Origin: an uncultured Candidatus Saccharibacteria bacterium
Lineage (GTDB): Bacteria > Patescibacteriota > Minisyncoccia > Phycocordibacterales > UBA9973
Direction: 5' to 3'
Length of the DNA: 17,582 nucleotides
NCBI GenBank assembly: GCA_964472335.1
Contig: CAYYJU010000013.1
Location: forward strand, 1-17,582
Every line of letters begins with the position of its first letter. Within the stretch, counting starts at the first letter, position 1. The notes beneath the pieces were generated by a model that was not told the DNA's origin, made no database searches, and saw only the letters and a program-made list of their open reading frames with translations. Position numbers and translations under genes: made by a program. This document shows positions 1 to 16,856 of the stretch, one piece after another.

Positions 1-375
1 CTTACTTTCTTTTCTCTTACCTGATGCCATTGTTCTTCGTACATTACCTCTGACAGTTCTTGAATTTGTTTTTGTACGTTGACCTCTGACTGGCAATCTC
101 TTCATGTGCCGACTTCCTCTGTAACTCTTCACATCTTTTAATCTCTTTATGTTTGCTGATATTTCTCTTTTCAAATTTCCTTCTATTGTCATACTTTCTA
201 TGACAGCACGAATTTTATTTTCTTCGTCATCATTTAAATCTTTAGCGTGGCGTCCAGCGTCAATGTTTACTTGTGCTAAAATTTTTCGAGAAGTAGAAAG
301 ACCGATACCATATAGCACGGTCAAACCAAATTCTAATCTTTTTTCGTCTGGTATTGTTATTCCAAGAATTCTCAT
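1..375 (-). CDS. rpsM: 30S ribosomal protein S13, 3' end cut by the window edge
   Basis: Not in the ORF track. The reverse strand from ATG (373-375) reads MRILGITIPDEKRLEFGLTVLYGIGLSTSRKILAQVNIDAGRHAKDLNDDEENKIRAVIESMTIEGNLKREISANIKRLKDVKSYRGSRHMKRLPVRGQRTKTNSRTVRGNVRRTMASGKRKESK with no stop before position 1. This is a typical S13 sequence (YGIG, SYRGxRH, PVRGQRTKTN motifs) and lies directly downstream of rpmJ, as in bacterial alpha operons. Confidence 0.93.
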   Translation of the reverse strand, partial: MRILGITIPDEKRLEFGLTVLYGIGLSTSRKILAQVNIDAGRHAKDLNDDEENKIRAVIESMTIEGNLKREISANIKRLKDVKSYRGSRHMKRLPVRGQRTKTNSRTVRGNVRRTMASGKRKESK

Positions 376-377
376 AA

Positions 378-488
378 TTATTGTTTTTGTTTATGCTTAG
401 GGTTTGAGCAGATAATTCTTAAATGCCTGGCTCTTTTAACCATTTTACAATTGTGACAAATTTTTTTTACTGCTGATTTTATTTTCAT
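378..488 (-). CDS. rpmJ: 50S ribosomal protein L36
   Basis: Not in the ORF track because it is too short. The reverse strand reads [36 protein letters not shown] (36 aa) with the L36 zinc-ribbon pattern C-x2-C...C-x4-H. Its TAA stop is 2 nt before the rpsM ATG. The infA-rpmJ-rpsM order is conserved. Confidence 0.9.
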
Positions 489-512
489 AAAAGACTTTTA
501 CTTAAATGACAC

Positions 513-540
513 AAAAAAAGGGAAAAAACCCTTATTTTTC
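513..540 (-). terminator. Weak hairpin plus T-run between infA and rpmJ, a possible attenuator or partial terminator
   Basis: The minus strand reads gaaaaat-AAGGG-tttttt-CCCTT-tttttgtg: a 5-bp stem (3 GC), a 6-nt loop, and a T-run after the stem. It sits about 25 nt upstream of the rpmJ ATG. The stem is short, so termination strength is doubtful. Confidence 0.35.
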
Positions 541-595
541 AATACTATAACTTTTTAAAAACCGTATTTACTATAATACACTATTCTTAAAAAAA

Positions 596-826
596 TTACA
601 ACCTTTTTACTATCCTCCCCTTTCCACCATAGGAATCAAGGACGACTTCGACAGAATCACCGACTAAAACCTTGATTCTGTGCATTCGCATTTTCCCAGA
701 TAAATATGCCAAAATTTCTTTATCTACATCGTTTTCTTTTATGTTTACTCTAAACAAAGTAGATGGTAATGCCTCTGTTACTGTCCCTTTTGTCGTCAAA
801 GGTTTTTCGTTTTTAATTTGACTCAT
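596..826 (-). CDS. infA: Translation initiation factor IF-1
   Basis: The 76-aa ORF has the S1-like IF-1 sequence (GTVTEALPSTLFRV...AYLSGKMRMHRIKVLVGDSVEVVLDSYGGKGRIVKRL). It has an ATG start and the conserved position upstream of rpmJ. Confidence 0.95.
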   Translation of the reverse strand: MSQIKNEKPLTTKGTVTEALPSTLFRVNIKENDVDKEILAYLSGKMRMHRIKVLVGDSVEVVLDSYGGKGRIVKRL

Positions 827-836
827 TTATATTTTT

Positions 837-865
837 ATATTAACAGAATTATGACCAATGGTCAA
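837..865 (-). promoter_or_regulatory. Putative sigma70-type promoter for infA
   Basis: The minus strand reads TTGACC (865-860), a 17-nt spacer, then TAATAT (842-837), followed by 10 nt and the infA ATG. The -35 box overlaps the inverted repeat TGACCA-t-TGGTCA. Confidence 0.45.
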
Positions 866-889
866 TGTGTTTTATATTGATAATATTAA

Positions 890-2227
890 TTATTTTGGAT
901 AATTTACAGTAACCTTGATGTCTTTCAATTTACTTGGTATGGATCTAACCCAAAACGGACTAAGCTCAAGCTCAGCAGAATCTACATGAGGATACTGTGA
1001 TAGTATCTCATTGAAGTCTTTTTTTGATTTACCTAAAAGTGACCCCGCAAAACTAGCGTCATCAAACTTCCAGACAACCTTGGCACTACCAGATAAATTG
1101 AAGTTTATATTCTGAACATCGTTGAATGATATGTCTTGGTCTATCATGGTAAAAACTAAATCTTTAATATTTGGTATATAAATCTCACTGTCATCGTAAT
1201 TGGCGATACTGTCTTTGGCAATTTTTGTAGTCAATTCTTTTTCGCTAAACAAAAAACCATACAATGTACCTTTTACTTTGACTGGTAAATTATTATCTAC
1301 TGATGTAAACTCGACACCTTCTTCGTCTATATTCAAAAAGGCTGCGTCTTTGAATAAGATAAACCCGTTTGGAATCTGGTCAATAGCTTTTTGTAAGAGC
1401 TTATCTTTCAAGCTTACTTTGAGTTCATTGAAAACCTTTTGCTGTTCGGCTTCGGCAATAACTGGAGTCTTGCCTTTAAAGCCACCTGTTATTGCTCCGT
1501 TGCTTCTTCCATAAAACTTTTCATATTTTGGAGTTCCCTTGAACCCAGATATAGTGAAATCTAGTGGTTCACTATTGTATTCTACTCCAGCTTCTAATCC
1601 CAAAATACCTACTTCGACTTTCCCAGCAGTGCCATCTATATTCATACCTGGAACGACGACCTCACCAACAGTTTTGTAAAATTTACCATTTGAACCTTCG
1701 AGCTTTGTATTATTTGCAAGTTTTTGAGGGGCAATACTAAATGTATTATATAGAAAGATTTTACCTTTAGAATTTAAAGAGACTTCTTTCTCTTCTCCGC
1801 CAGGAACTTTTTTGACTTCTTCCCCAGAAATAATAACCAAGTCAAAAGATAAGCCATTCGAATTTATATCTTTTATGGCGGACCAATTTTTATCCAAAGA
1901 AAAATCATTTATCTTTGGGTTTACGGTAACTGTAGCTCTGGCAAAGAGAAAAGATAGAGCAAATATAAAAAATATTATAGAAATAAAAGCTACCAACCAA
2001 AGCCCGTGACGAGATTTTGTATTTTTATTTTCTTTAAATTCTCTATATTCTGGAATTTCTCTTTTAGTAAATTCTTGCCTAGGAATTTTTTTTATCGTTG
2101 GATATTTTTTTACCTCTTCCATCCTTGGAGTATCTCTTTGGGTGGTATATCTGACCATCTCCTTTTTAGGAGATTTCAAGGAAGAATTTTTTACTTTCAC
2201 CATGTCTTGAAATAAATTTTTAGGCAT
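890..2227 (-). CDS. Hypothetical single-pass membrane protein: basic N-terminal tail, one TM helix, large C-terminal domain
   Basis: The 445-aa ORF has an ATG start 2 nt after the stop of the upstream actin-fold gene. The first ~75 aa are lysine/arginine-rich, followed by the hydrophobic segment LWLVAFISIIFFIFALSFLFA and then ~350 aa with no motif I recognise. Confidence 0.7.
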   Translation of the reverse strand: MPKNLFQDMVKVKNSSLKSPKKEMVRYTTQRDTPRMEEVKKYPTIKKIPRQEFTKREIPEYREFKENKNTKSRHGLWLVAFISIIFFIFALSFLFARATVTVNPKINDFSLDKNWSAIKDINSNGLSFDLVIISGEEVKKVPGGEEKEVSLNSKGKIFLYNTFSIAPQKLANNTKLEGSNGKFYKTVGEVVVPGMNIDGTAGKVEVGILGLEAGVEYNSEPLDFTISGFKGTPKYEKFYGRSNGAITGGFKGKTPVIAEAEQQKVFNELKVSLKDKLLQKAIDQIPNGFILFKDAAFLNIDEEGVEFTSVDNNLPVKVKGTLYGFLFSEKELTTKIAKDSIANYDDSEIYIPNIKDLVFTMIDQDISFNDVQNINFNLSGSAKVVWKFDDASFAGSLLGKSKKDFNEILSQYPHVDSAELELSPFWVRSIPSKLKDIKVTVNYPK

Positions 2228-2229
2228 AA

Positions 2230-3474
2230 TTATATTTTATCTTGTAGTAAGAATTTTTCAAAGTTACGTTCGGGTACTTTTGCTAAAAAACGATTTATAT
2301 AAGCCCCATCGATGGTGAGAAAAGCATTAAACATGGAGTCTTCCCCGAATTCTGCTATCCCGTGCAAATTTTCAATATTTAAAAATACAATCTGAAATTT
2401 TGATTCCGTCAGTGTGTATTGATTGAATTGCTCAGTCTTTATTATTTCTGCGAAAAATTCTGCTAAATCTTTGTCTACAGTGGTATATACAAAGGCTGGT
2501 ATAGAGATATCATTGGACAGGTTTGCTAGAGATTCTTGAAATTTCTTTAACCATTCTATTTTTAGCCTTGCTATTGCTGGCTCTAATGTATTTAAAGTAT
2601 TCGCTGCTGCGTGTCCATCTTTGAATAATGAAATTAATGACTTAGCTTCTGCTAGTGAGCATTTCATAGTAGAAGCAACCTCGCGTATCATAAAGTTTAT
2701 GCCGAGTGGGAAAGAAGTGGACTCTCGTAAAATATCGTTTTTTACCATAGAAATATCAGTAATTTCTCCTCCAATATTGATCAAAAGAAAATTATTTTGA
2801 TCTACAAATAAATCACGAATTATTGTAAAAGCTGCCAATGTAAATGGAGAAAATTTTATCTCACTACTTATAGCGCTAGAAGTGAAATGTTTGGCTATGG
2901 TTTCTTCTATTTTTTTACATACTTTTTCTTCGCTCATTGAAACGAAGATAGTCATCTCTACTTCTTTAGCTTTTTTACCTAATGGCTTTATGGTCTCATA
3001 GCCATTTAAAACTATTTTAATATTTTTTAATTCAATCAATCGAAGAGCATGGTCAGCATCTGCATATTTCTTTAGATAGTCTTCTTTGAGGAGAGCTATG
3101 TCTTTTTGTATCAACTCTTCGGATAATTTTGAGGTAAATATAAAAGGTGTATCTTGTTTATAACTAATAACTCTGGTCTGAGAAATATGCCATGGTGATG
3201 AAAATATACAGAAAATCCTAGATGGAGCACCTAGACCTTTAGTGTAGATTTTATTTGTTACAGTTTCTAATGCTTGAATCGTAAGAAGTAAAAATCTATC
3301 TGGGTCTACCTTGTCTTCAAGTATTATCGGCTCACGAATAGAAGTAATTATTTTAGGTACGCCAGATTCTCTTATATAAAAAAGGGCAGCTTTTACAGAC
3401 GAAGAGCCAATATCAAAAACTAGGACTAGCTCATCTTTCTTTTTTGATTTAGAAAAAATACCCAAGATATTCAT
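2230..3474 (-). CDS. Actin/HSP70-fold ATPase, divergent FtsA/PilM-like
   Basis: The 414-aa ORF has a phosphate-1-like motif (LVLVFDIGSSSVKAAL) near the N-terminus. It also has a phosphate-2/adenosine-like motif (FLLINIGGEITDISMV ... FPLGINF ... LAEAKSLI) at the spacing seen in FtsA/PilM. I cannot tell from sequence alone whether it is FtsA or PilM. Confidence 0.6.
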   Translation of the reverse strand: MNILGIFSKSKKKDELVLVFDIGSSSVKAALFYIRESGVPKIITSIREPIILEDKVDPDRFLLLTIQALETVTNKIYTKGLGAPSRIFCIFSSPWHISQTRVISYKQDTPFIFTSKLSEELIQKDIALLKEDYLKKYADADHALRLIELKNIKIVLNGYETIKPLGKKAKEVEMTIFVSMSEEKVCKKIEETIAKHFTSSAISSEIKFSPFTLAAFTIIRDLFVDQNNFLLINIGGEITDISMVKNDILRESTSFPLGINFMIREVASTMKCSLAEAKSLISLFKDGHAAANTLNTLEPAIARLKIEWLKKFQESLANLSNDISIPAFVYTTVDKDLAEFFAEIIKTEQFNQYTLTESKFQIVFLNIENLHGIAEFGEDSMFNAFLTIDGAYINRFLAKVPERNFEKFLLQDKI

Positions 3475-3493
3475 AGTGAAATTATATCACTAC

Positions 3494-5245
3494 TTACGAA
3501 ACAAGGACAGCCTTTATGCGTCTAATACCCTGTGCCACAGATTCTTCTTTTTGAATTTTAAAAATTGATAGTTCGTTTGTATTTTTCACATGTGGACCAC
3601 CGCAAAATTCAAGACTAAATGTATCATTATTTACTTCAGGAGTTTTACCTATTGAATACACAGAGACCATGTCAGCGTATTTGACGCCAAATTCCATCTG
3701 AGCGCCTAGTTTTTCTGCTTCAGCTTTTGGCATTTCATGACGAGTGACATTTAGACTTTCTTTTATTTTTTCATTTACCAAGTCCTCTACTTTCTTTTTT
3801 TCTTCATCAGTTAATTTATGGTCACAAAGAAAATCTATACGCAAACGCTCCTCAGTGATATTACTACCTCTTTGTTTTATATTTTTATCCACTACTTGCT
3901 GAAGTGCAGCTAATAATAAGTGATGAGCTGTGTGAAGACGGATGGTTTTTTCATTATGATTTGCTAGTCCCCCTTTAAACATACCTGCAGATGATGTCTG
4001 AGATAATTTTTGATGTTCTGCCATCTTTTTATTAAAATCTTCTTTATCTATAGTCTGTCCTTTTTCTTTTGCTAGTTCTTCGGTTAGCTCTACAGGGAAG
4101 CCATAAGTAGTAGCTAAAATAAATGGGTCAGTACCCTTTTCAAATTCTTTTGCTCCTTCGTTTAAAGTATTTAAAAATCTTTCTTCTTCTTTTTGAAAAA
4201 TTGATTTAATATCTATGTTTTTTAAATCTGGATAAGTAGGTGAATATTTATCGACAAAAAATTTAATTAAATTTGTACTTAAAACTTTATGCGATTCTAA
4301 GGTGCGCATTTTAAATACTGCTCTTCTGATTAATCTCCTTAGTACATAACCCTGATTTTTATTTGCTGGTATAACACCATCGGAAATTAAAAAAGTGGCT
4401 GTCCTTGTATGATCTACAATAACTCTGATAGACTTTTCATCATACTTAAGAGAAGATTCTTTTACTATGTCTAATGCACCTTTTAACAGATCCGTGTCAT
4501 AAGCTGTTTGTTTACCTTGCATTACCGCAGTGATACGCTCTAGTCCTGCACCTGTGTCTACATTTTTTTGTTTTAATTTTCCAATTACTTTTCCATCTTT
4601 CTTTTCATATTCCATGAAAACATCATTCCATATCTCTATGACCCTCTCATCTTTTATTGCTTCCAAGAAATCCGTGTGTGACAAATCTCCGACATCTCCA
4701 GACATGTCATAAAACATTTCACTGCAAGGACCACATGGGCCATTGTCTCCTGGACTCCACCAATTATCTTCAGCTCCTAAGGCATAAATCCTGTTTTCAG
4801 GTATACCTAGGCTCATCCAAATCTTTTTTGATTCTTCATCAAAAGGAGCATTTTCATCTCCTTTAAAAATAGTAAAATACAGACGATTTATATCTAAACC
4901 TAATCCTTCTTCTTTATTAGTTAAAAACTCATAACTCCACTTTATCGCATCTTGCTTGAAATAATCTCCAAGAGACCAATTCCCCATCATTTCAAAAAAA
5001 GAAAAATGGCGCTTATCACCAATATCTTCTAGGTCTCCGGTGCGTACACATTTTTGTATATCTGCTATTCTCTTTCCCATCGGGTGAGATTGCCCCAAGA
5101 GATATGGAACCAATGGTTGCATACCGGCAGTATTAAAAAGTACTGATGGATCGTTTTCAGGTACGAGAGAAGCTGAAGGAATTATTTTATGTTCCCTCTT
5201 TTCAAAAAATTTTAAAAATCTATTTCTGATCTCACTTGAATCCAT
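3494..5245 (-). CDS. alaS: Alanine--tRNA ligase, short form ending after the editing domain
   Basis: N-terminal AlaRS signature (EIRNRFLKFFEKREHKIIPSASLVPENDPSVLFNTAGMQPLVPYLLG), WWSPGDNGPCGPCSE, and the editing-domain zinc motifs HTAHHLL and CGGPHV. It ends ...GIRRIKAVLVS*. I place the start at ATG 5245 (MDSSEIRNRF). The track start at 5311 is a TTG that overlaps the upstream gene. Confidence 0.9.
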   Translation of the reverse strand: MDSSEIRNRFLKFFEKREHKIIPSASLVPENDPSVLFNTAGMQPLVPYLLGQSHPMGKRIADIQKCVRTGDLEDIGDKRHFSFFEMMGNWSLGDYFKQDAIKWSYEFLTNKEEGLGLDINRLYFTIFKGDENAPFDEESKKIWMSLGIPENRIYALGAEDNWWSPGDNGPCGPCSEMFYDMSGDVGDLSHTDFLEAIKDERVIEIWNDVFMEYEKKDGKVIGKLKQKNVDTGAGLERITAVMQGKQTAYDTDLLKGALDIVKESSLKYDEKSIRVIVDHTRTATFLISDGVIPANKNQGYVLRRLIRRAVFKMRTLESHKVLSTNLIKFFVDKYSPTYPDLKNIDIKSIFQKEEERFLNTLNEGAKEFEKGTDPFILATTYGFPVELTEELAKEKGQTIDKEDFNKKMAEHQKLSQTSSAGMFKGGLANHNEKTIRLHTAHHLLLAALQQVVDKNIKQRGSNITEERLRIDFLCDHKLTDEEKKKVEDLVNEKIKESLNVTRHEMPKAEAEKLGAQMEFGVKYADMVSVYSIGKTPEVNNDTFSLEFCGGPHVKNTNELSIFKIQKEESVAQGIRRIKAVLVS

Positions 5246-5252
5246 TTTTTTA

Positions 5253-5729
5253 TTAACTCTGGAATTTATCGTCGATTTTTTCTCCAGCCATTCTTCTGAT
5301 AGGTTTTTCAATTATATTTACTGCGGTTAGCACCACAAATATAATACCAGTGACTATGAAAGCTAGACTGAAAAATCCGAAACCAGAAGCCATACCTACC
5401 CCTGCTGTGACCCACAATCCTCCTGCAGTGGTGAGACCCATCAATCTATTTCCTTGTAAAATTATAGAACCAGCTCCTAGAAAACCAATACCTACGATAA
5501 TTTGTGAAGCTATTCTAGTAGGATCAAATCCTCCAAAAGTTCCGTGTTTTATTGCTATCATTTCAGAAATTATTATGAACAAAGCTGCTCCGATAGAAAC
5601 CAAAGCATGAGTCTTCATGCCAGCTTCTTTGTGAACAATAGCTCTCTCTAAACCAATAAATAGACCTAAGCCTGCAGCTACTACTAATCTTAAAATAACA
5701 TCACCGTTTTGTATTAAAAATTGAGACAT
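5253..5729 (-). CDS. MgtC/SapB family membrane protein
   Basis: Multi-pass hydrophobic protein with the MgtC-family N-terminal signature (RLVVAAGLGLFIGLERAIVHKEAGMKTHALVSIGAALF). I prefer ATG 5729 (MSQFLIQ). The track start at 5744 is a TTG overlapping the mnmA stop. Confidence 0.8.
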   Translation of the reverse strand: MSQFLIQNGDVILRLVVAAGLGLFIGLERAIVHKEAGMKTHALVSIGAALFIIISEMIAIKHGTFGGFDPTRIASQIIVGIGFLGAGSIILQGNRLMGLTTAGGLWVTAGVGMASGFGFFSLAFIVTGIIFVVLTAVNIIEKPIRRMAGEKIDDKFQS

Positions 5730-5736
5730 AAACCAA

Positions 5737-6936
5737 TTATACAACTACTCCACCACCTAGGCAAATGTCACCATCATAGACTACTACAGACTGACCACTC
5801 GCCACCAAGACTGGTTTTTCAAAAATTATCTCAGCACTGTCTTTTGTTTTTATTTTAATTTTGCAAGATAAAAATTCTCCATGATAGCGAATCTGTGCTG
5901 TATATGTTTTATCTTCTTTTGGTATTTCTGAAATCCAATTTATACTCTGCAGTCCAAGATAAAAAGGTGTGCTTTCTTTGGTCTTCGCAACCAAAGCTGG
6001 GTCAGCTATATTCAAGACAGAGTGCGAGCCATGAGAAAGCATCACCTTTTTATCTTGGGAAACAACTAAAATATTTTTCTTTATATCTTTTGCTACAACA
6101 TAATAAGCTCCATCATTCGGGCTCTTTTTAGTGATTACGAAACCATGCCTTTCTCCGAGAGTATGAAACACGGCACCATCATGACGGCCAATCACTTCCC
6201 CGTTCTCATTTACCACATCACCCTTTTTTTCTTTTATGTAATGCTTTAAAAATTCTTTTAAATCAATCGCACCTAAAAAACAAATACCCTGACTATCATG
6301 TTTTTCAGCTACTGGTAATTTGAATTTTTTCGCTAACTTCCTAACCTCTGTTTTCTTTAGGTGTCCTATAGGGAATAAAATTTTAGACAGCTGTTTTTGA
6401 TTTAAAGTCCAAAGGAAATATGATTGGTCCTTGCTTGGGTCTACCCCCTTTAAAAGGCAAGAATTTGTTCTTTCTTCACCTTTCGCAACCAAAGCTGGGT
6501 CAGCTATATTCAAGACAGAGTGCGAGGTGTGAGAAAGAATCAAATTCTTGCGCATTGCATAATGCCCAGTAGCTACAAAATCCGCGCCCATAGAAAGTGC
6601 CTTTTTTAAAAAAGCTCCAAACTTTACTTCTTTATTACACATGACATCTGGGTTTGGAGTCCGCCCAGCTTTATACTCTCTTATCATATAGTCTGCTACT
6701 TCATTTTTATATACATCTTCAAGATCAAGTGCTAGAAATGGTATGTCTAAATACGCAGCCACACGCATGGCGTCTCTCTTTTCATCTTCTTCATTGCATT
6801 CTATGAAATCTGGGTGCCAAGTCTTTATAAAAACCCCCACTACTTCATAGCCTTTTTGTTTTAGTAAGGTAGCGGAAACAGCGCTATCTACGCCCCCAGA
6901 AAGCCCTACAAATATTGTCTGCTTTTTTCTTACCAT
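5737..6936 (-). CDS. mnmA: tRNA 2-thiouridine(34) synthase MnmA carrying two in-frame repeat insertions
   Basis: PP-loop SGGVDSAV, catalytic-Cys contexts PNPDVMCNKEVKF and DSQGICFLG, ATGHYA, KDQSYFLW, and C-terminal GQSVVVYDGDICLGGGVV. At 399 aa it is longer than typical MnmA because ..LSH(T/G)SHSVLNIADPALVAK.. occurs twice. Confidence 0.92.
   Translation of the reverse strand: MVRKKQTIFVGLSGGVDSAVSATLLKQKGYEVVGVFIKTWHPDFIECNEEDEKRDAMRVAAYLDIPFLALDLEDVYKNEVADYMIREYKAGRTPNPDVMCNKEVKFGAFLKKALSMGADFVATGHYAMRKNLILSHTSHSVLNIADPALVAKGEERTNSCLLKGVDPSKDQSYFLWTLNQKQLSKILFPIGHLKKTEVRKLAKKFKLPVAEKHDSQGICFLGAIDLKEFLKHYIKEKKGDVVNENGEVIGRHDGAVFHTLGERHGFVITKKSPNDGAYYVVAKDIKKNILVVSQDKKVMLSHGSHSVLNIADPALVAKTKESTPFYLGLQSINWISEIPKEDKTYTAQIRYHGEFLSCKIKIKTKDSAEIIFEKPVLVASGQSVVVYDGDICLGGGVVV
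5954..6058. repeat. Palindromic element copy A (~105 bp) inside mnmA
   Basis: Imperfect hairpin. The arm 5954-5969 (ccaagataaaaaggtg) is the exact reverse complement of 6043-6058. Further pairs are tgctttct/agaaagca, tgg/cca and tcgca/tgcga. The 45-bp core at 5984-6028 is identical to copy B. Confidence 0.85.
6457..6551. repeat. Palindromic element copy B (~95 bp) inside mnmA
   Basis: Imperfect hairpin. The arm 6457-6467 (gcaagaatttg) is the exact reverse complement of 6541-6551. Further pairs are ttctttct/agaaagaa, cacc/ggtg and tcgca/tgcga. The 45-bp core at 6482-6526 is identical to copy A. Confidence 0.85.
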
Positions 6937-6951
6937 AGATGTAATTTACCT

Positions 6952-7884
6952 TTATTTTAAAAATTTAGCTATATTTAGCTTGTGCTCAGAAAAACTCTTT
7001 GCATAGTGAGTATTCCCTTCTTTGTCGTGAATATAATATAAATAAGATGATTTCTTTGGATTCAATGCGGCATTTATAGCCTCTAATCCAGGGTTGCCGA
7101 TAGGTTCTCTTGGTAATCCTTTTACTTTGTATGTATTTGGTTCGGCGTCCACCTGAAGTGGCATACCTATACTTAGTCTCTTCCATAAGATTCCAGATAT
7201 CAATTCGCGGTCAGCATCACCACTCGCTTCTTTTTCTAGTATTGAAGCCATGATAATTATTTCATTTTCAGTTTTTCCAGACAGAGAGATAGCTTCACGC
7301 AGTGGGGCAATTTTTTTCTCATAATTTTTACTCATAGATTCAATAGCTTTTATCTCTGTATCTGTGCTCAAGAAATAATAAGTGTCAGGGAAAAGATAAC
7401 CCTCTTTGGCTTTTAATAGAAAATTATTTTTATTAAAATATTTTAATTTCTTACTATATACTTCTACTATTTCATTTATATTTAAGCCTTCAGGTATGGT
7501 GACTGCCACTCTAGTTGTGTAGCGTTCCCCTTTTACTATGAGGAGAGCCGCTTTATATACAGGCATTTTTTCTTCAAATAAATAGTCTGAGAATTTTATA
7601 CGTTTCTCACCACCAAAGGCTATGGCAAAAATTTCAAACATAGAACTTGAACGTATAATATTTTCCTTCTTTAATTTTAGTGAAATACTATGTAGGCTCA
7701 TTCCTGGCTCTACTTGTAATATAGTACCTGGTATAAAATTAGATGGCGCACTAAAAAGAAAAAAATATATTAAAATAAAAAAAACTAATACAAAAAAAGA
7801 AATCCCAAAAAACTTAAAGTTTCTAGACTTTAAAAAAGAATATCTTTCATCCTTTAAAGGAATATCTTGTATATTTTCTTCCAT
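6952..7884 (-). CDS. mltG: Endolytic murein transglycosylase MltG (YceG-like)
   Basis: N-terminal TM anchor (FFGISFFVLVFFILIYFFLF) and YceG-family motifs (MASILEKEA, GLPREPIGNPGLEAINAALNP, YLYYIHDKEGNTHYAKSFSEH). I prefer ATG 7884 (MEENIQD), 1 nt after the upstream stop. The track start at 7938 is a TTG overlapping the upstream gene. Confidence 0.85.
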   Translation of the reverse strand: MEENIQDIPLKDERYSFLKSRNFKFFGISFFVLVFFILIYFFLFSAPSNFIPGTILQVEPGMSLHSISLKLKKENIIRSSSMFEIFAIAFGGEKRIKFSDYLFEEKMPVYKAALLIVKGERYTTRVAVTIPEGLNINEIVEVYSKKLKYFNKNNFLLKAKEGYLFPDTYYFLSTDTEIKAIESMSKNYEKKIAPLREAISLSGKTENEIIIMASILEKEASGDADRELISGILWKRLSIGMPLQVDAEPNTYKVKGLPREPIGNPGLEAINAALNPKKSSYLYYIHDKEGNTHYAKSFSEHKLNIAKFLK

Positions 7885-7885
7885 A

Positions 7886-9286
7886 TTAAGTCGGTAAGTT
7901 TGTAGGTGGAGAAGCGTCAGTAGATTCAATACGCTCAAGTGTAGGAACTTTTAATATCTGACCAGGGAAATGCCACAGGGTAGCAATCTCTTCGGTGTTT
8001 AAGACGAAAGTTTGTGGGTGAAAATATGGCAAAAAGAAAGGTTGTATTAAAACTGAACCCGCAATAATACTTTCAAATGGCCAACTAAGTGCATGCTTGT
8101 TGAACAAATGATGCCTCATAGGTAAATGGAAAAATCCTCTCTCTCTGTATTCATGAAGCATTCTATCTGCAAGCAACATTACTTTTTCTTGTGAAAGACC
8201 AAATAATCCACTATATGCATCTGCCTGTGTGGAATTCATACGCACTAGTCCATTTACATCCGGAGCATCGTACTGACGAAAGATAAGACGGATATTTCTT
8301 CTACTACTCATATCCCAAGCTTCTTTTTTTGCTACATACATCACTCTTATACCTGTCTCAAAACCAATCTTTGAAGTTTTAGCACTCATAGCTTTTGCTG
8401 CTCTATCTAGATAAGCAGGCACACGAACTTCGATTCTAGAGTTTCCGGGATCACCTGGGCGTGCTTTTATACTAGTGTAATCTTTAAGTAACTTAAATAA
8501 TTCATTTCTAGCTTCTACTACCCAATCATGAGTACCAAACCAAGTACCTTTGGTGTGATACATCTTCTTTACAGGAGTGATCACAATCTGCAACCACATT
8601 TGCTCACCTTTTTTTAATGAACCAAAAAGTTCTACAACTGGAGAAATCGGATCTACTTTATATTCTTCTTTTGGATCTTTATCTAGTCCAAAATCAACAT
8701 ATGTTTTTAGTGGATAGGCTTCTGGCTTTAACAAACCGAATTCGCAACCCCATCCCATCCATGCACTCTCTGGACTTATTTTATCAACTGCCAAAGTATA
8801 GTCTGGGACTTCTCTTATTTGGGACTGAGGATACTGAGCATACATCTGTGTCTCTATAAGACCTCGAATACGGGTAGGTGTGCGAATATAAAAATGTACT
8901 TGTCCATCGATAGACGCTATTTCCAAAGAAAACCAAAACCAGACGGCTCCTTGCCAATACTCTTCTTTACCTCCTTTATAACTCCAGTGATAGAGAGCAT
9001 TGGTAATAAAAAGCTCCATAGCTTTTGGTGAACGCAACACTTCTCTCGGAGGAATAATTTCTAGAAGGACAAAATCAATACCGGAAATAAAATCTTGTCT
9101 TATATAATGAATCCACATTTTGTACGCTACCCAGCCGATAAAAAAAGTTCCTATCAGTGGAAGGATGCCTTTTACCAAACCATACAACATGTCGTAATAC
9201 CAAAGAAGAAAAACAGCTACTGCAGCAAGAAGCCAAGGCCAATATTCCATAATTGCAGTTTCTAGACCTTCTGTAAGCTGATCCAT
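7886..9286 (-). CDS. Hypothetical membrane protein: two N-terminal TM helices and a ~390-aa domain of unknown function
   Basis: The 466-aa ORF has an ATG start. Its hydrophobic segments are WPWLLAAVAVFLLWYY and LPLIGTFFIGWVAYKMWIHYI. It is Trp/Tyr-rich and I found no P-loop (GxxxxGK[ST]) or other catalytic motif. Confidence 0.7.
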   Translation of the reverse strand: MDQLTEGLETAIMEYWPWLLAAVAVFLLWYYDMLYGLVKGILPLIGTFFIGWVAYKMWIHYIRQDFISGIDFVLLEIIPPREVLRSPKAMELFITNALYHWSYKGGKEEYWQGAVWFWFSLEIASIDGQVHFYIRTPTRIRGLIETQMYAQYPQSQIREVPDYTLAVDKISPESAWMGWGCEFGLLKPEAYPLKTYVDFGLDKDPKEEYKVDPISPVVELFGSLKKGEQMWLQIVITPVKKMYHTKGTWFGTHDWVVEARNELFKLLKDYTSIKARPGDPGNSRIEVRVPAYLDRAAKAMSAKTSKIGFETGIRVMYVAKKEAWDMSSRRNIRLIFRQYDAPDVNGLVRMNSTQADAYSGLFGLSQEKVMLLADRMLHEYRERGFFHLPMRHHLFNKHALSWPFESIIAGSVLIQPFFLPYFHPQTFVLNTEEIATLWHFPGQILKVPTLERIESTDASPPTNLPT

Positions 9287-9306
9287 GTTAATAGTGTAAT
9301 ATAAAA

Positions 9307-9347
9307 AAATTAAAAAATACAGCTTTTTTAGCTGTATTTTTTAATTT
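9307..9347 (-). terminator. Perfect 17-bp hairpin, a likely intrinsic (bidirectional-type) terminator after the sigma-r4/HARE-HTH gene
   Basis: aaattaaaaaatacagc (9307-9323), loop tttttta, gctgtattttttaattt (9331-9347). The arms are exact reverse complements. The minus-strand transcript continues with ttttttatatt after the stem. It begins 14 nt after the upstream gene's stop codon (9361-9363). Confidence 0.7.
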
Positions 9348-9360
9348 AATATTTTATTCT

Positions 9361-10389
9361 TTAAACTACGTTGTAAAGTCCACTCTTATCAACTTTAAAG
9401 TATTTGGGATTTACTAAATTCACTAATATTGTGTTTTTCTTGAAGTATCTTTCTTTGTTTACTTTTTCAATCACATCATCTTTTGTCATAGGGCCTTCTC
9501 TCTTTAGTATGTCTCGTATTACTTCACGAGCAGTACCAGCTTTGTAACCCCACTCAGATAAAGCATACATTCCTCTCCCTACTAATACAAAGCGAGAATC
9601 TTTTATAAGTTCGTTGTGGCAAGTAGCATAATGTACTTTCTTATTAAATGTCTTTGAAATAGAATTTGCTACCTCTTTGAAATGCATTGGTGAACCGTGT
9701 CTTCTCATGACTAAGAAAGCATAATCTTTTACTCCACGAGTACGGACATTTGGACTTGAAGCTTTACCCCATTCTCCAAATGGATTCTTTGCAATCTTCT
9801 TTGACATAGATAGCCATCTCTTTGCTATCTCATCGTCTCGGTATTGCTCGGATACATCTTTCATATGATCAAAAAACATTTTAATCATTTCGGTCTCTGG
9901 TATTAGGTCTTCGTCTTTTAGACTTGTGTAAAGTTTCTTCAATGTAGCGTGAACTTTTTCACTCATCTCATCATCTACGCTAAAACGAGTATGAAAATGA
10001 TCATCTTCGCGGTGCTTTTTAAAAGAATCACTCAAAGTAAGGAAAAAGTGAATATGGTTTTGAGTAGTCTTGTCTTTTGATATGTATGGCAATAACTCAT
10101 GCTCTGGAATAATTGAACCTAGGTTTTTTATAAGTTGTTTCAATTCTTCAAAAGCTGCTTGTTCTAATTTGTAAGCATCTGACTTTTTAATAGCAGACAA
10201 AGCCACGTCTTCTATTTGACGCACACGCTCTCTGGTGATTTTATATTTTTTACCAATTTCCTCGAGAGTGTGCCTCTCGCCGTCAGGTGTCAACCCAAAA
10301 CGGTTCATAATAACATCAAAAGACCGGTCCGTAAGATGTGAAATTATTTTTTTAGTAATTTTTTTTGGTTTAAAAGTTATTGTTGACAT
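9361..10389 (-). CDS. Sigma-70 region-4 HTH plus C-terminal HARE-HTH (RNAP delta-like) domain protein
   Basis: The N-terminal segment DRSFDVIMNRFGLTPDGERHTLEEIGKKYKITRERVRQIEDVALSAIKK matches the sigma-70 region 4.2 pattern. The C-terminal segment KDYAFLVMRRHGSPMHFKEVANSI...ELIKDSRFVLVGRGMYALSEWGY matches the HARE-HTH pattern (..D.RF..vg.g.w.L..w). No sigma region 2 is evident. Confidence 0.6.
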   Translation of the reverse strand: MSTITFKPKKITKKIISHLTDRSFDVIMNRFGLTPDGERHTLEEIGKKYKITRERVRQIEDVALSAIKKSDAYKLEQAAFEELKQLIKNLGSIIPEHELLPYISKDKTTQNHIHFFLTLSDSFKKHREDDHFHTRFSVDDEMSEKVHATLKKLYTSLKDEDLIPETEMIKMFFDHMKDVSEQYRDDEIAKRWLSMSKKIAKNPFGEWGKASSPNVRTRGVKDYAFLVMRRHGSPMHFKEVANSISKTFNKKVHYATCHNELIKDSRFVLVGRGMYALSEWGYKAGTAREVIRDILKREGPMTKDDVIEKVNKERYFKKNTILVNLVNPKYFKVDKSGLYNVV

Positions 10390-10426
10390 AAATTTATTTT
10401 TTTTAAATTAATTCTTACTTTTACTT

Positions 10427-12247
10427 TTATGATCTATTTTTCTTTACTCTATCTAACTCGGTTAAATATTTTTTTCTTAGTCTTACAGATTTTGGAGTGA
10501 CTTCTAGGTATTCATCATTGTTCATGACTTCTAGCCCCCTCTCAATACTTAAGATAAATGGAGGATTTAAAGTGAGAGCTTCATCAGTACCAGAAGCTCG
10601 CATGTTTGTGAGCTGTTTTCCTTTAGTAGGATTTACAGCCATGTCTTCTCCTTTTAGAACATTACCTACAACCATACCTTCGTAAACTTCACTACCATGT
10701 TCTATGTATAATATACCACGTTCTTGCAAATTTGCCAAGGCAAATGCCACAGCTTTACCTCCAATCATAGAAGTCATAGATCCATATGAGCGCTTTTTTA
10801 TTTCCCCAGCGTGTTCTTTGAAGCCAGTGACTCGTGAACTCATTATTCCCTCTCCTTTTGTATCAATAATAAATTCGCCACGATAGCCGAGTAATCCACG
10901 AGTAGGTATATCAAAGATAATTCTCGCAATACCGTTTTTTTCAACCATATCCTTCATGATTCCGCGTCTCTTGCCGATTTTCTCAATTACACTTCCACTT
11001 GATTCCATAGGAACATCTATCACTAGCTCTTCATATGGTTCTGTCTTTACCCCATCTTTTTCTTTGATTATAACCTCTGGTTGAGATACCTGCATCTCAA
11101 AACCTTCTCGGCGCATATTTTCCAAAAGGATTGCAATGTGAAGCTCTCCTCGTCCATATACTTTGAAAAAACTTGGACCAGATTTATCACCTTGGTCTGG
11201 AGAAAAATCTACTTTCAATCCTACGTTTATCTCTAGTTCTTTTTCTAGTCTTTCTTTTATCTGACGAGAAGTGACAAATTTTCCTTCAGTGCCTGCAAAT
11301 GGAGAGTCGTTGACTAAAAAATTAAGAGATAAAGTAGGTTCATCGATAGCGATGTGTGGCAATGGCTCCACAGATTCATCTTCACAAATTGTCTCTCCGA
11401 TATAAATATCCGGTATACCAGATATCATCACTATATCTCCGGAAGTCGCATACTCTACATCTTTTCTAGCTATACCTTCAAAAGAAAAAAGTTTTGTAAT
11501 CTTTCCTTTTCGTGTTTCATTTATTTCTTGTTCATCATGAGAAAAACCTTTTACCAAGACTGAGCTACCAGAAACTATTTTTCCAGAGTATATTCTGCAT
11601 ACAGCCATTCTTCCTAGGAAGTTGTCATAGCCTAGATTGAAAACTTGAGCAGACATTTTACCGTCTTGATCCTTGGAAGCAGGTTTTACTTTTTCTAAAA
11701 TAAGATCTAACAATGGTGAAAGATCTTTCGAATCATCACCCAATTTTTTAAATGCTTTTCCTTCTCGTCCGATAGCATATATAGTCTCAAAATCTGCTTG
11801 TTCTTCACTGGCACCTAATTCAAAAAATAATTCTAAAATTTCATCATGCACTCTGTGAGCATCAGCAGCTGGTTTATCTATTTTATTTATTACCACTATA
11901 GGCCTTAGTCCTAACTCGAGAGATTTCTTTAATACGAATCTTGTCTGTGGCATTGGTCCTTCTACAGCATCCACAAGCAAAAGCACAGAATCAATGGCTC
12001 GCAACACTCGCTCTACTTCAGAGCCGAAGTCCGCGTGACCTGGAGTGTCTACTATATTTATCTTTGTATCTTTATAGTAGATTGAAGTATTTTTAGAATA
12101 TATAGTAATACCACGCTCTTTTTCTAGGTCGTTTGAGTCCATGGATACACCTTCAGCATTGCCACCATTTTGCTTCATCAAATAATCAGTAAGAGTCGTC
12201 TTGCCGTGGTCCACGTGAGCTATTATCGCTATATTTCTTATTTCCAT
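10427..12247 (-). CDS. typA: Translational GTPase TypA/BipA
   Basis: The 606-aa ORF has G1 AHVDHGKTT, G3 DTPGHADFG and G4 NKID, then the BipA-type domain order and C-terminal region (e.g. LLGYRGEF, VEVTPKSVRLRK-like tail). Confidence 0.93.
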   Translation of the reverse strand: MEIRNIAIIAHVDHGKTTLTDYLMKQNGGNAEGVSMDSNDLEKERGITIYSKNTSIYYKDTKINIVDTPGHADFGSEVERVLRAIDSVLLLVDAVEGPMPQTRFVLKKSLELGLRPIVVINKIDKPAADAHRVHDEILELFFELGASEEQADFETIYAIGREGKAFKKLGDDSKDLSPLLDLILEKVKPASKDQDGKMSAQVFNLGYDNFLGRMAVCRIYSGKIVSGSSVLVKGFSHDEQEINETRKGKITKLFSFEGIARKDVEYATSGDIVMISGIPDIYIGETICEDESVEPLPHIAIDEPTLSLNFLVNDSPFAGTEGKFVTSRQIKERLEKELEINVGLKVDFSPDQGDKSGPSFFKVYGRGELHIAILLENMRREGFEMQVSQPEVIIKEKDGVKTEPYEELVIDVPMESSGSVIEKIGKRRGIMKDMVEKNGIARIIFDIPTRGLLGYRGEFIIDTKGEGIMSSRVTGFKEHAGEIKKRSYGSMTSMIGGKAVAFALANLQERGILYIEHGSEVYEGMVVGNVLKGEDMAVNPTKGKQLTNMRASGTDEALTLNPPFILSIERGLEVMNNDEYLEVTPKSVRLRKKYLTELDRVKKNRS

Positions 12248-12324
12248 AATTTAATTTTTCTTTTAACCCTTATAAAACAAAAAAGCCTTTGGGCTCTATT
12301 TTGCATCTTTTAATAATAACATAC

Positions 12325-12353
12325 TTTATAGAAAATGACAAGTCCTTGGTCAA
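12325..12353 (-). promoter_or_regulatory. Putative sigma70-type promoter for typA
   Basis: The minus strand reads TTGACC (12353-12348), a 17-nt spacer, then TATAAA (12330-12325). It begins 24 nt after the uppS stop and lies about 75 nt upstream of the typA ATG. Confidence 0.45.
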
Positions 12354-12376
12354 ATTCTCCTTTATTATAACATAAA

Positions 12377-13099
12377 TTATTTACCATGCCTACGGCTACG
12401 CAAACTATACTCATCTAAAACACTAAAAAAGTCCTCTTTACTAAATGCTGGCCAGTAGGTTTTCAAAAAGAAGAACTCGCTATACACGCTCTGCCATGGC
12501 AAAAACCCTGATAGGCGCATCTCCCCGCTTGTTCTTATTATTATATCTGGGTCTGGTATATCTTTTGTATATAAATTGTTTGAAAAGTCTTGTTCTGTAA
12601 TTTTAGATATTTCTTCTTTAGTCTTAGTCTCAGATATTTTTTTTACTGCATCCAATATCTCTTGTCTGCCTCCATATGACATTGCGAGCACCATCGTCGT
12701 CTTGAAATGCTTGGTATCATCTTCTATTTTTTTTATCATTTCTTGAATATCTTGAGAAAAACGTGATATATCTCCGACTACTTTTATTCTTATTTCATTT
12801 CTAAATAAAGACTCGACGCCATCTGTAAAAGCAAACTTAAATAAATCCATAAGGTAACTTACTTCTTCTTCTTTCCTTTTCCAGTTCTCAATTGAAAAAC
12901 AATAAAAAATTATATACTCAATTCCGATATCTTTTGCCCATCTTCCTACATTTCTCATCTTCTCATAACCTTTTCTGTGCCCTTGAAAAACAGGTACACC
13001 TTGTTCTTTGGACCACCTCCTGTTGCCATCCATTATTATGCCTATGCATTTGGGTATTTTTTTATCCCGATTTTGGTCGGGATTTTCTTTTTCTTTCAT
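12377..13099 (-). CDS. uppS: Di-trans,poly-cis-undecaprenyl-diphosphate synthase
   Basis: The 240-aa ORF carries cis-prenyltransferase signatures (IGIIMDGNRRWSKEQG, FSIENWKR, IRTSGEMRLSGFLPWQSVYSEFFF). Confidence 0.92.
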   Translation of the reverse strand: MKEKENPDQNRDKKIPKCIGIIMDGNRRWSKEQGVPVFQGHRKGYEKMRNVGRWAKDIGIEYIIFYCFSIENWKRKEEEVSYLMDLFKFAFTDGVESLFRNEIRIKVVGDISRFSQDIQEMIKKIEDDTKHFKTTMVLAMSYGGRQEILDAVKKISETKTKEEISKITEQDFSNNLYTKDIPDPDIIIRTSGEMRLSGFLPWQSVYSEFFFLKTYWPAFSKEDFFSVLDEYSLRSRRHGK

Positions 13100-13103
13100 A
13101 TAA

Positions 13104-13400
13104 TTAAAAATGATCTAAGAAACCATGATAAACAATTTTAAAATCTTTAAATACACCAGTACTAGAAGACCACTCTATTTTAATATCTTCTACTTTAGAT
13201 AAAAGTGAGCCTTTTTTTAATTTTTCTAAAAAGATATTTAATTTATCTTCTTCGCCTTGTGCAACGACTTTCACTATACCGTCTGATAAATTTTCTACTG
13301 TACCTGTGAGTGTTAGTTTCCTAGCGTTTCTATGTGTGAAATCACGAAAAAGTACACCTTGTACTCTGCCAGAAATTATACAAGTAATTTGTTTAGTCAT
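13104..13400 (-). CDS. acyP: Acylphosphatase
   Basis: The 98-aa ORF has the acylphosphatase signature ISGRVQGVLFRDFTHRNARKLTLTGTVENLSDGIVKVVAQGEE. Confidence 0.88.
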   Translation of the reverse strand: MTKQITCIISGRVQGVLFRDFTHRNARKLTLTGTVENLSDGIVKVVAQGEEDKLNIFLEKLKKGSLLSKVEDIKIEWSSSTGVFKDFKIVYHGFLDHF

Positions 13401-13403
13401 GTT

Positions 13404-13489
13404 TGGTGCGTCGGGAAGGATTCGAACCTTCGTAGCCCGGAGGCGACAGATTTACAGTCTGTTGTAATTGACCACTCTACCACCGACGC
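13404..13489 (-). tRNA. tRNA-Tyr (anticodon GTA), 86 nt with an encoded CCA
   Basis: The minus strand reads GCGTCGG-TG-GTAG-AGTGGTCAA-TTAC-A-ACAGA-CTGTAAA-TCTGT-CGCCTCCGGGCTAC-GAAGG-TTCGAAT-CCTTC-CCGACGC-A-CCA. It folds as a full cloverleaf with a 7-bp acceptor stem, a GTA anticodon flanked by T and A, a long variable arm typical of bacterial tRNA-Tyr, and a TTCGAAT T-loop. Confidence 0.93.
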
Positions 13490-13560
13490 ATAGGAAATAT
13501 ACTAGCATAAAATAACACAAAAAAAACTTTTTTGCATCTTTTATGAGCTATTTATTCCCT

Positions 13561-16281: not shown

Positions 16282-16285
16282 ATTT

Positions 16286-16819
16286 TTATTGTGTTACTGG
16301 TGTTTCCCCTGCTGGTGGGACGACTGGAGGTACAGGAGGAGTTTCATTTTTTGCTAATTCAATGATAGTAAAATCTTTTTGCTCAATTACTTTTGATACT
16401 TTTTGTTCCCCTAATACAGATTTTATAATATACACTTCTCCTTCTTTTGGTGCTGGTATTAGAGAAGCTATGACTACTTTATTTTCTCCGAGAAATAATC
16501 CGCTACCTAAAACTTTGTCTTTATCAGCTGTCTCTCCTTTTAATACCAAGGTCATAGTGAGTGGCTTGATTGCTTTCAAATCTTCGAGTAATTTCTTTTG
16601 ATCATTAGACAAAGCTGGAGTGCTCACAGTATTGGTGACGCTGGCTGGTACTACTTTTTCTACTGTCTCTCTGACTATCTGTGTGAGTGGCACAGTGACC
16701 GAACCTGGAGCTTGTTGCATCAAAGTCACAGTGGTTATACCTGTCGCAATAGAAGTGACAAACGATAGTAATACCGCTAGTAATATAAGCTGTGATTTAT
16801 TTAATTCCTTTATGTCCAT
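16286..16819 (-). CDS. Hypothetical membrane-anchored protein with a proline-rich C-terminus
   Basis: The 177-aa ORF has an ATG start and one N-terminal TM segment ([24 protein letters not shown]). A beta-rich segment follows, then the tail [19 protein letters not shown]. Its stop is 4 nt before the clpB ATG. Function unknown. Confidence 0.65.
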
Positions 16820-16825
16820 AGGTCA

Positions 16826-16854
16826 ATTATATCTCAAAATGACCTCAAAATCAA
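16826..16854 (-). promoter_or_regulatory. Putative sigma70-type promoter placed for a leaderless transcript of the 177-aa gene and clpB
   Basis: The minus strand reads TTGATT (16854-16849), a 17-nt spacer, then consensus TATAAT (16831-16826), followed by 6 nt (tgacct) and the ATG at 16819. The expected transcription start falls on or next to the A of the start codon. Confidence 0.5.
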
Positions 16855-16856
16855 AA

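Follow-up and report, generated by a model that had tools for sequence, protein, structure and literature searches.

Rickettsia palindromic elements (RPEs) are palindromic repeats of ~100-150 bp that are present in frame in housekeeping genes, where the extra surface peptides are tolerated, as well as outside of genes; no transposase is known for them (PMC10969869). Here we analyse two in-frame palindromes, copies A and B, in mnmA, the gene for a tRNA 2-thiouridine(34) synthase on contig CAYYJU010000013.1. The window, i.e. the whole stretch of DNA that was analysed, comprises positions 1 to 17,582 of this contig. We lean towards the view that the two copies represent an RPE-like, translated passenger element, the arms of which are mirrored locally, most probably by template switching during replication, and the cores of which are homogenised within the gene.

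Like RPEs, the mnmA palindromes (95-105 nt) are in frame, are located in predicted disordered loops of MnmA, and have intergenic relatives. The size, the number of related copies (at least 19), and the non-disruptive in-frame position, with presumed translation, all agree with RPEs. In contrast to RPEs, the host is an ultra-small bacterium, and its phylum is Patescibacteria, within the candidate phyla radiation (CPR). RPEs are found in dozens of genes that are not related to each other (R. conorii has 44 insertions), whereas the family found in the window is almost confined to two loops of mnmA; moreover, these loops are shared among many unrelated families across the whole class, and the outer arms are mirrored host sequence and not element-borne. 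Membership of the RPEs by descent is unlikely because the host is Paceibacteria-like, as judged by its MnmA relatives; the likeness is one in kind. Translated in-frame palindromic repeats, which are known mainly from Rickettsia, would be extended to the CPR in an unusually concentrated form.

[quoted passage not shown] They share with the mnmA family that they are short hairpin repeats, often in transcribed spacers right after genes, in one orientation relative to transcription, and conserved in sequence between species. Occasionally, an ERIC element is intragenic (PMC10969869). REPs are characterised in one account as G+C-rich sequences of 20-40 bp with a GTAG/CGTC tag and RAYT transposases (PMC3733652). 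Unlike REP/BIME, the mnmA element has a length of 95-105 nt, A+T-rich arms, an intragenic location, and ends without the GTAG/CGTC tag. The terminal inverted repeats of MITEs are conserved, and target-site duplications accompany them; the mnmA element has neither feature, and its copy number is very low.

The third relevant system is a mechanism and not an element family. In template switching, perfect stems as well as compensatory changes at several bases arise in a single step, and the quasipalindrome template switch (Ripley/Lovett model; Mönttinen & Löytynoja 2022) copies one arm onto the other and can extend the stem into the flank (PMC8794818). It predicts strand-symmetric complementarity with Watson-Crick pairs only, as seen in the mnmA hairpins. 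It leaves the origin of the 66-nt unit described below, the conservation of an irregular helix, and the mnmA hot spot unaccounted for.

Two in-frame hairpins in mnmA

The features of the gene and of the two copies are as follows (window coordinates):

5737-6936, minus strand: mnmA, tRNA 2-thiouridine(34) synthase, host of both hairpin copies; intact open reading frame (ORF) of 399 aa
5954-6058, minus strand: copy A, palindrome of 105 nt at site A; encodes SQDKKVMLSHGSHSVLNIADPALVAKTKESTPFYLG
5954-5969, minus strand: sense right outer arm of copy A, CACCTTTTTATCTTGG; encodes T-P-F-Y-L-G; perfect mirror of the host-derived left arm
5972-6039, minus strand: conserved portable unit of copy A, ~68 nt
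5984-6028, minus strand: 45-nt core of copy A, equal to 6482-6526
6043-6058, minus strand: sense left outer arm of copy A, CCAAGATAAAAAGGTG; holds the Ser293 wobble base and the whole Gln294 codon (host sequence)
6457-6551, minus strand: copy B, imperfect palindrome of 95 nt at site B; encodes ...RKNLILSHTSHSVLNIADPALVAKGEERTNSC...
6457-6467, minus strand: sense right outer arm of copy B (forward-strand letters gcaagaatttg); encodes T-N-S-C; mirrors 6541-6551
6470-6537, minus strand: conserved portable unit of copy B, ~66-68 nt, with irregular inner stems and loop; common to all family members
6482-6526, minus strand: 45-nt core of copy B, same sequence as 5984-6028
6541-6551, minus strand: sense left outer arm of copy B (forward-strand letters caaattcttgc); encodes R-K-N-L; adjoins the GHYA anchor

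The original prediction had been made from the letters of the window alone, and its coordinates and strings for both copies all match the sequence. Copy A has a perfect outer stem of 16 bp (5954-5969 with 6043-6058), which is followed by tgctttct (5970-5977) paired with agaaagca (6034-6041), a bulged t (6042), and an inner stem of tgg (5979-5981) with cca (6029-6031). The corresponding stems of copy B are ttctttct (6468-6475) with agaaagaa (6532-6539), again next to a bulged t (6540), and cacc (6477-6480) with ggtg (6526-6529). The two copies are 498 nt apart. On the sense strand, the inner helix of the unit reads CTTTCT-CA-CGGC-TCGCA ... TGCGA-AT-GCCG-A-AGAAAG, to which a loop of 33 nt is added. 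The 45-nt core has no third match in the window, and none was obtained in 200 shuffles.

The predicted hairpin architecture is real and present on both strands. RNA folding resulted in values of -40.5 and -38.1 kcal/mol for the two strands of copy B and of -51.5 and -49.2 kcal/mol for those of copy A, with z values of -5.5 to -8.0, and none of 200 shuffles was as good. With DNA parameters, the z values for the two copies were -5.7 and -7.6. A scan of the whole 17.6-kb window revealed that A and B are its sole long hairpins of their kind; its remaining strong hairpins are a stem resembling a terminator (9307-9347) and a tRNA-Tyr.

All genes of the window are encoded on the minus strand. MnmA has three Pfam domains, i.e. 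HUP (7-222), PRC barrel (227-294), and C-terminal barrel (329-398), its best matches in the PDB are the MnmA structures 9hlv, 2hma, and 2der (E~1e-81), and the catalytic residues Cys100 and Cys219 are in invariant alignment columns. The closest relatives of the protein are annotated as Nomurabacteria, Paceibacteria or Patescibacteria, and, judged by them, the host genome appears to be Paceibacteria/Nomurabacteria-like.

Both copies are in frame and stop-free within the mnmA ORF. Site A, which holds copy A, is the linker that joins the PRC barrel to the C-terminal barrel, while site B is directly after the GHYA motif and holds copy B. Residues 129-149, at site B, have no counterpart in the solved structures 9hlv, 2hma, and 2der, and the alignment to solved MnmA structures has 21 gap residues at site A. 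In the AlphaFold model, the domains are confident, and predicted local distance difference test (pLDDT) values <50 are found at 136-145, 152-155, and 299-321, i.e. at the inserts. The inserts are thus predicted to be disordered surface loops of ~21-22 residues each that are tolerated by MnmA, and they are presumably transcribed and translated within it. Empty sites exist in syntenic relatives, i.e. L083 is devoid of the site-A insert and L084 of the site-B insert (L-numbers are labels of related genome loci or metagenome stretches). The net gain per insert is ~21-22 residues (~66 nt), while the palindromes cover 32-35 codons. The native loops have 11-12 residues, about the size of both outer arms combined.

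Complementary arms and mirrored flanks

For a comparative analysis, 19 distinct family copies were used; two more, in L103, were found later. The set included copies A and B of the window, copies at site A or site B in nine related genomes or metagenome contigs, an intergenic copy that directly follows a stop codon in L095, and the L006 subfamily described below. Anchoring on the conserved inner helix yielded an essentially gap-free alignment of the copies (A1). Columns 20-87 are conserved over the 19 copies, and columns 1-19 and 88-106 are variable.

The original prediction had claimed that the differences between the arms of copies A and B are compensatory, and the larger set bears this out. 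The 33 pairs of A1 form standard pairs in 89.5% of the cells, and shifting the 3′ partner by 1-3 columns lowers this value to 45-50%. Both sides are changed at 20 of the 33 pairs, and the number of doubly changed cells is 81 versus 21.8±4.3 in shuffles, none of 500 of which reached the observed value. In an alignment-free test, the left outer arm scored 13.4 with its own right arm and 7.0 with the right arms of other copies (0 of 10000 permutations), showing that the arms are correlated. The orthologous arms of copy B serve as an example: they are GCAAGAATTTG/CAAATTCTTGC in the window and GCAATAAGTTG/CAACTTATTGC in L081, with two differences, both of them compensated. Likewise, the inner 4-bp stem has the consensus CGGC/GCCG, but copy A has TGG/CCA, copy B has CACC/GGTG, and copy A of L103 has CGTC/GACG.

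The 79 non-Watson-Crick cells comprise 13 G·U, 20 A·C (equivalent to G·U on the opposite strand), and 46 others. In a set of 32 hairpins that represents many families at sites A and B, G·U pairs account for 45 of 901 on the sense strand (5.0%) and for 76 of 971 on the antisense strand (7.8%), and the sense strand is the more stable one in only 13 of the 32 cases. The complementarity is that of a DNA palindrome and not of the RNA type. Because there is neither an excess of G·U pairs nor a strand asymmetry, a functional RNA hairpin is not supported. The earlier proposal that pairing is selected is retained only insofar as the hairpin is maintained; its extension to selection at the RNA level finds no support. 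A general caution follows for covariation analyses. Two-sided changes affect 20 of 33 pairs inside a coding gene, and yet they are strand-symmetric, wobble-free, and involve in part host codons. In view of this strand symmetry and of arms made partly of host codons, compensatory change alone is no proof of a selected RNA structure.

The fractions of identical positions were also determined by codon position. For the element core, the values are 0.85, 0.87, and 0.84 at positions 1, 2, and 3, respectively. In contrast, third positions of the host gene are only 49% identical and the fourfold sites only 26-45%, and both are thus saturated. The equal conservation at all codon positions implies that the element does not evolve like coding sequence. 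Simple duplication of coding sequence is thereby excluded, as had been argued before, and a pattern restricted to synonymous sites, which would have spoken against a constraint on the structure, was not found.

The outer arms contain host sequence. In 60 homologues, some of which have an empty site, the conservation of V292, S293, and Q294 of MnmA is at least 90%, and the stem of copy A begins within this VSQ motif, with the Ser293 wobble base and the whole codon of Gln294. At site B, the stems of unrelated families (L004, L006, L083, and L102) start in or at the Ala codon of GHYA. Across families, the ~20 bases after the left host anchor recur as the reverse complement just before the right anchor. 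This was quantified with an anchored mirror score, which was preferred because the minimum-free-energy boundaries at site B are blurred by spurious outer pairs. For site A (n=10), the score was 11.6 for the own arm and 5.4 for the arms of others, and for site B (n=22) the values were 9.5 and 4.6; in both cases 0 of 5000 permutations reached the observed value. A target-site duplication was not found at any of the 19 copies (k of 0-1 wherever the boundary was correctly placed).

As an alternative to selected pairing, the original prediction had suggested that the two copies come from different perfect-palindrome masters. This fits poorly with stems that enter host codons (Gln294 of VSQ, Ala of GHYA), and it is further disfavoured by unrelated families, in which the host sequence on the left, whatever it is, is mirrored by the right arm. 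Mirroring of the flank at the DNA level by template switching fits better than either RNA selection or palindrome masters.

Distribution of the family and the mnmA hot spot

All copies of the family have the same orientation relative to genes. L006 harbours a more distant subfamily: a single copy is in mnmA, and three others, within 21 kb, are in intergenic spacers (9247-9349, 9892-9990, and 20293-20385). The intergenic copies fill the spacers right after the stop codons of yceG, of an RNase T-like exonuclease gene, and of rpsI, and one of them ends a few bases short of, or overlaps, the start of mnmA. A 22-nt motif matched 12 metagenome stretches, one of which (L094) is a chance match; 10 of the 11 real matches are in mnmA and one is intergenic. 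Among 1.84 billion representative proteins, the only match to the insert peptide was a protein derived from MnmA, and a word-indexed protein search with the same peptide yielded zero candidates. The flanks of the closest relatives (~80 kb) contained no copy, and an exact 23-mer of the core had no match in the genome contigs searched. A relaxed-motif scan of viral contigs retrieved five matches, all of which have a high GC content, arose by chance, and are devoid of a hairpin.

The unit of the window family is ~87% identical across genomes that have saturated synonymous sites. For the inner 68 nt, the identity of copies A and B within a genome is 0.88-0.985, compared with 0.866 between genomes. 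The outer arms of A and B within a genome are much more variable (0.38-0.95), and the mean arm identity between copies is 0.58. The high end is represented by L089, in which A and B are ~95% identical, outer arms included. A Mantel test of host versus element divergence gave r=0.22 and p=0.25; the host tree is star-like, so that the test has no power to discriminate between vertical descent and transfer.

The two sites were surveyed in the 120 closest MnmA homologues. At site B, 102 of them have at least 35 residues between GHY and KDQ and only nine have 22 or fewer; for site A, the corresponding numbers are 71 filled and 28 short. In total, 173 sites are filled, and blastp groups them into at least 38 clusters, 17 of which have two or more members (blastp was used because single-linkage clustering of 3-mers over-merged the inserts). 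Many of the clusters are present at both sites, and the largest one, the "SHGSHS" cluster, to which the inserts of the window belong, has 59 members (25 at site A and 34 at site B). The filled sites for which the DNA was at hand are strong hairpins, with values of -30 to -78 kcal/mol. In L002, an unrelated family has identical cores at sites A and B, while the arms are different and yet each perfect. The two loops of one conserved gene are thus filled in most of the 120 homologues by dozens of unrelated hairpins. These inserts inflate and diversify the MnmA sequences, and gene calling, domain annotation, and phylogenetic analysis of CPR genomes could be misled by them.

Within ORFs of the eleven closest genome loci, strong hairpins are almost exclusively in mnmA, and the other strong ones are intergenic, with one exception. 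This is a 70-nt hairpin with a perfect 26-bp stem that is in frame within the alanyl-tRNA synthetase (AlaRS) ORF of L011 (8078-8147), showing that in-frame hairpin inserts are not strictly confined to mnmA. At site B of L010 (7302-7530) and in P0083, two hairpin families are adjacent in one loop, with 76 residues from GHY to KDQ, so that insertions are able to stack at the hot spot. L102, which is the closest relative that has a different family, carries at site B a hairpin (~10380-10465) with a perfect stem of 27 bp; this stem, the longest perfect one seen at this site, begins precisely at the Ala codon of GHYA (GCACAGCGGGTACAGAAAAATTCTTCCG...).

The protein P0121 (177 aa) from the representative library is MnmA-like and related to L089. 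In it, the site-B copy is fused to the sequence after the site-A copy, which corresponds to a deletion of ~500 nt between direct repeats. This could be a genuine recombination product, or the repeat may have made the assembly collapse; in either case, it illustrates that the direct repeats formed by the inserts can lead to deletion or collapse of the gene in assemblies.

Origin of the hairpins and minor features of the window

According to the explanation that we favour, the portable unit of ~66-68 nt (22 codons) would occupy the centre of a native surface loop that is 11-12 residues long. Each arm's outer 11-19 bp would not travel with the unit; they would consist of native loop codons on one side and of a reverse-complement copy of them on the other side. 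This mirroring would most likely be made and renewed by intramolecular template switching during replication, i.e. by quasipalindrome correction or extension. The extension of the arms would halt where conserved residues would be overwritten, i.e. at GHY(A) and KGxD at site B and at VSQ and NWI at site A. The two cores in the gene may be kept identical via gene conversion or templated copying between the sites, and the insert itself would be passenger or selfish DNA, comparable to the RPEs.

Mirroring of the local flank would explain why the arms are specific for each copy and yet self-complementary. It would also explain why substitutions as well as multi-base and length changes reappear on the opposite arm without selection on an RNA. 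The hallmarks of template switching are present: the flank is mirrored across families, two-base changes are mirrored, and the spectrum is confined to Watson-Crick pairs. Template switching as the mechanism of mirroring, the translation of the insert, and the way in which the unit first enters a site are inferences. Both sites have an A-rich left flank with the sequence Q-(D/N)-K-K, and we conjecture that this flank may act as microhomology or as a target.

Several points weigh against this explanation. The template-switch events were not individually reconstructed, so that the fit amounts to consistency and not to proof, and selection for a stable DNA or RNA hairpin would likewise lengthen stems up to constrained residues. 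The outer arms are decayed in the site-A copies of L081 and L082, and mirroring is thus not continuous. A simple form of the scheme, in which cores are exchanged and arms retained, was rejected because the site-B family of L102 has entirely different arms of 27 bp. The bulge and the asymmetric internal loops are kept in all copies, whereas unchecked arm-to-arm correction should erase them, which implies that some sequence-specific constraint acts on the unit. The ~87% identity of the unit, despite saturated synonymous sites and few copies outside of mnmA, calls for recent spread with a strong site preference, for a function, or for recognition by an enzyme; a passive passenger alone is insufficient. 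Finally, the explanation does not account for the large number of families that target these two loops of a single gene.

A bolder proposal, which we regard as rather unlikely, is that Paceibacteria carry an as yet undescribed type of mobile hairpin that is independent of a transposase, i.e. that units of ~66 nt are copied by template switching into and between existing hairpins and that their arms are rebuilt from the flank. If this were true, two codon-precise loops of mnmA would be permanently occupied while the family in them turns over (at least 38 clusters in 120 homologues). The covariation-rich, "RNA-like" intragenic hairpins would then be a by-product of DNA copying, and mnmA would be a natural recorder of it.

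The mobility of the whole palindrome of 95-105 nt as a MITE-like, non-autonomous transposon moved by a transposase is likewise a minority option in our assessment. Copies A and B would then derive from masters with different terminal inverted repeats, and the covariation would result from selection on the masters to keep the hairpin or the terminal repeats for the enzyme. The presence of the family in intergenic DNA besides mnmA, the single orientation of all copies relative to genes, and the high identity of A and B in L089 even in the outer arms are compatible with such a transposon, and nucleotide conservation at every codon position would fit a turnover of young copies. However, the termini differ between copies, none of the 19 copies has a target-site duplication, and the copy number outside of mnmA is very low. 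The stems take in conserved host codons, which empty sites have as well, and the net insertion has ~66 nt and not 95-105 nt. A CAAGATAAAAAG-like motif common to many outer arms could be taken as a terminal signature, but it is accounted for by the Q-(D/N)-K-K of the host at both sites. Lastly, the window and the syntenic relatives examined contain no transposase gene.

We assign a low probability to a functional structured RNA, i.e. to an element of the mnmA mRNA, and elsewhere of 3′ untranslated regions, that would act in cis in processing, as a stabiliser or attenuator, or in protein binding. The strong covariation, the conserved bulge and internal loops, and the conservation of the primary sequence of the inner helix and of parts of the loop at all codon positions would be expected for such an element, and the intergenic relatives are in sense orientation right after stop codons. 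In contrast, G·U pairs are not enriched and the sense and antisense strands are symmetric. A search of Rfam with permissive E-values yielded no family, only generic matches resembling miRNA precursors with at most 28.8 bits, compared with gathering scores of at least 82. At least 38 unrelated clusters occupy the same two loops and some homologues have empty sites, and mnmA thus requires no specific RNA. In addition, a hairpin of ~30 bp inside a coding region would hinder translation rather than aid it.

Selection could also act on the DNA structure, i.e. on a cruciform or single-strand hairpin that is bound or used by a host protein, e.g. in replication, recombination or defence, with arms that co-vary by ordinary compensatory substitution. 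The strand-symmetric complementarity with Watson-Crick pairs only is as expected from this idea, and so is an inner helix that is conserved together with its fixed irregularities. Mirrored multi-base and length changes, however, are hard to obtain via independent point mutations, unrelated sequences occupy the two loops, some copies have decayed arms in a gene that is still intact, and the genes in the neighbourhood hint at no partner protein. We regard such a selected DNA structure as improbable.

A duplicated peptide module (LSHGSHSVLNIADPALVAK) selected for MnmA function, with the palindrome being incidental, is effectively refuted: both copies are in frame and stop-free and the peptide is recognisably conserved in relatives, but the third codon positions of the core are conserved like the first and second ones, members of this DNA family are also present in intergenic regions, the inserts have predicted disorder and are missing from solved MnmA structures, and dozens of unrelated peptides take their place in homologues. 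An intron, an intein or translational bypassing was rejected because all copies in all homologues are in frame and stop-free, which would not be needed if they were removed from the RNA or the peptide, and an assembly artefact because the same architecture is found in many independent assemblies and samples.

A third variable position of mnmA was observed between "KKGEV" and "VIG" (residues ~241-243 of the window protein, ~6205-6215). There, L083, L089, and L004 have 8-9 extra residues (ILVPSEVEGG, LVPSESEGG, and LAPSGVEGS), which are missing in the window and which may represent another small palindromic insert.

A spacer of 74 nt separates the sigma-factor ORF (9361-10389) from the ORF at 7886-9286. 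It contains a perfect, A+T-rich hairpin of 18 bp (AAATTAAAAAATACAGCT...AGCTGTATTTTTTAATTT; 9307-9347) that looks like a bidirectional terminator. The AlaRS ORF of the window (3494-5311, 605 aa, TTG start) overlaps the MgtC ORF (5253-5744) by 59 nt and is 14-24 residues longer than the AlaRS proteins of relatives (581-591 aa); owing to the overlap and the extra length, its listed start is probably over-extended. The AlaRS gene of L081 is broken into two ORFs of 411 and 172 aa (5491-7241). A tRNA-Tyr (GTA) is encoded on the minus strand of the window at 13404-13489, between an acylphosphatase-sized ORF and clpB.

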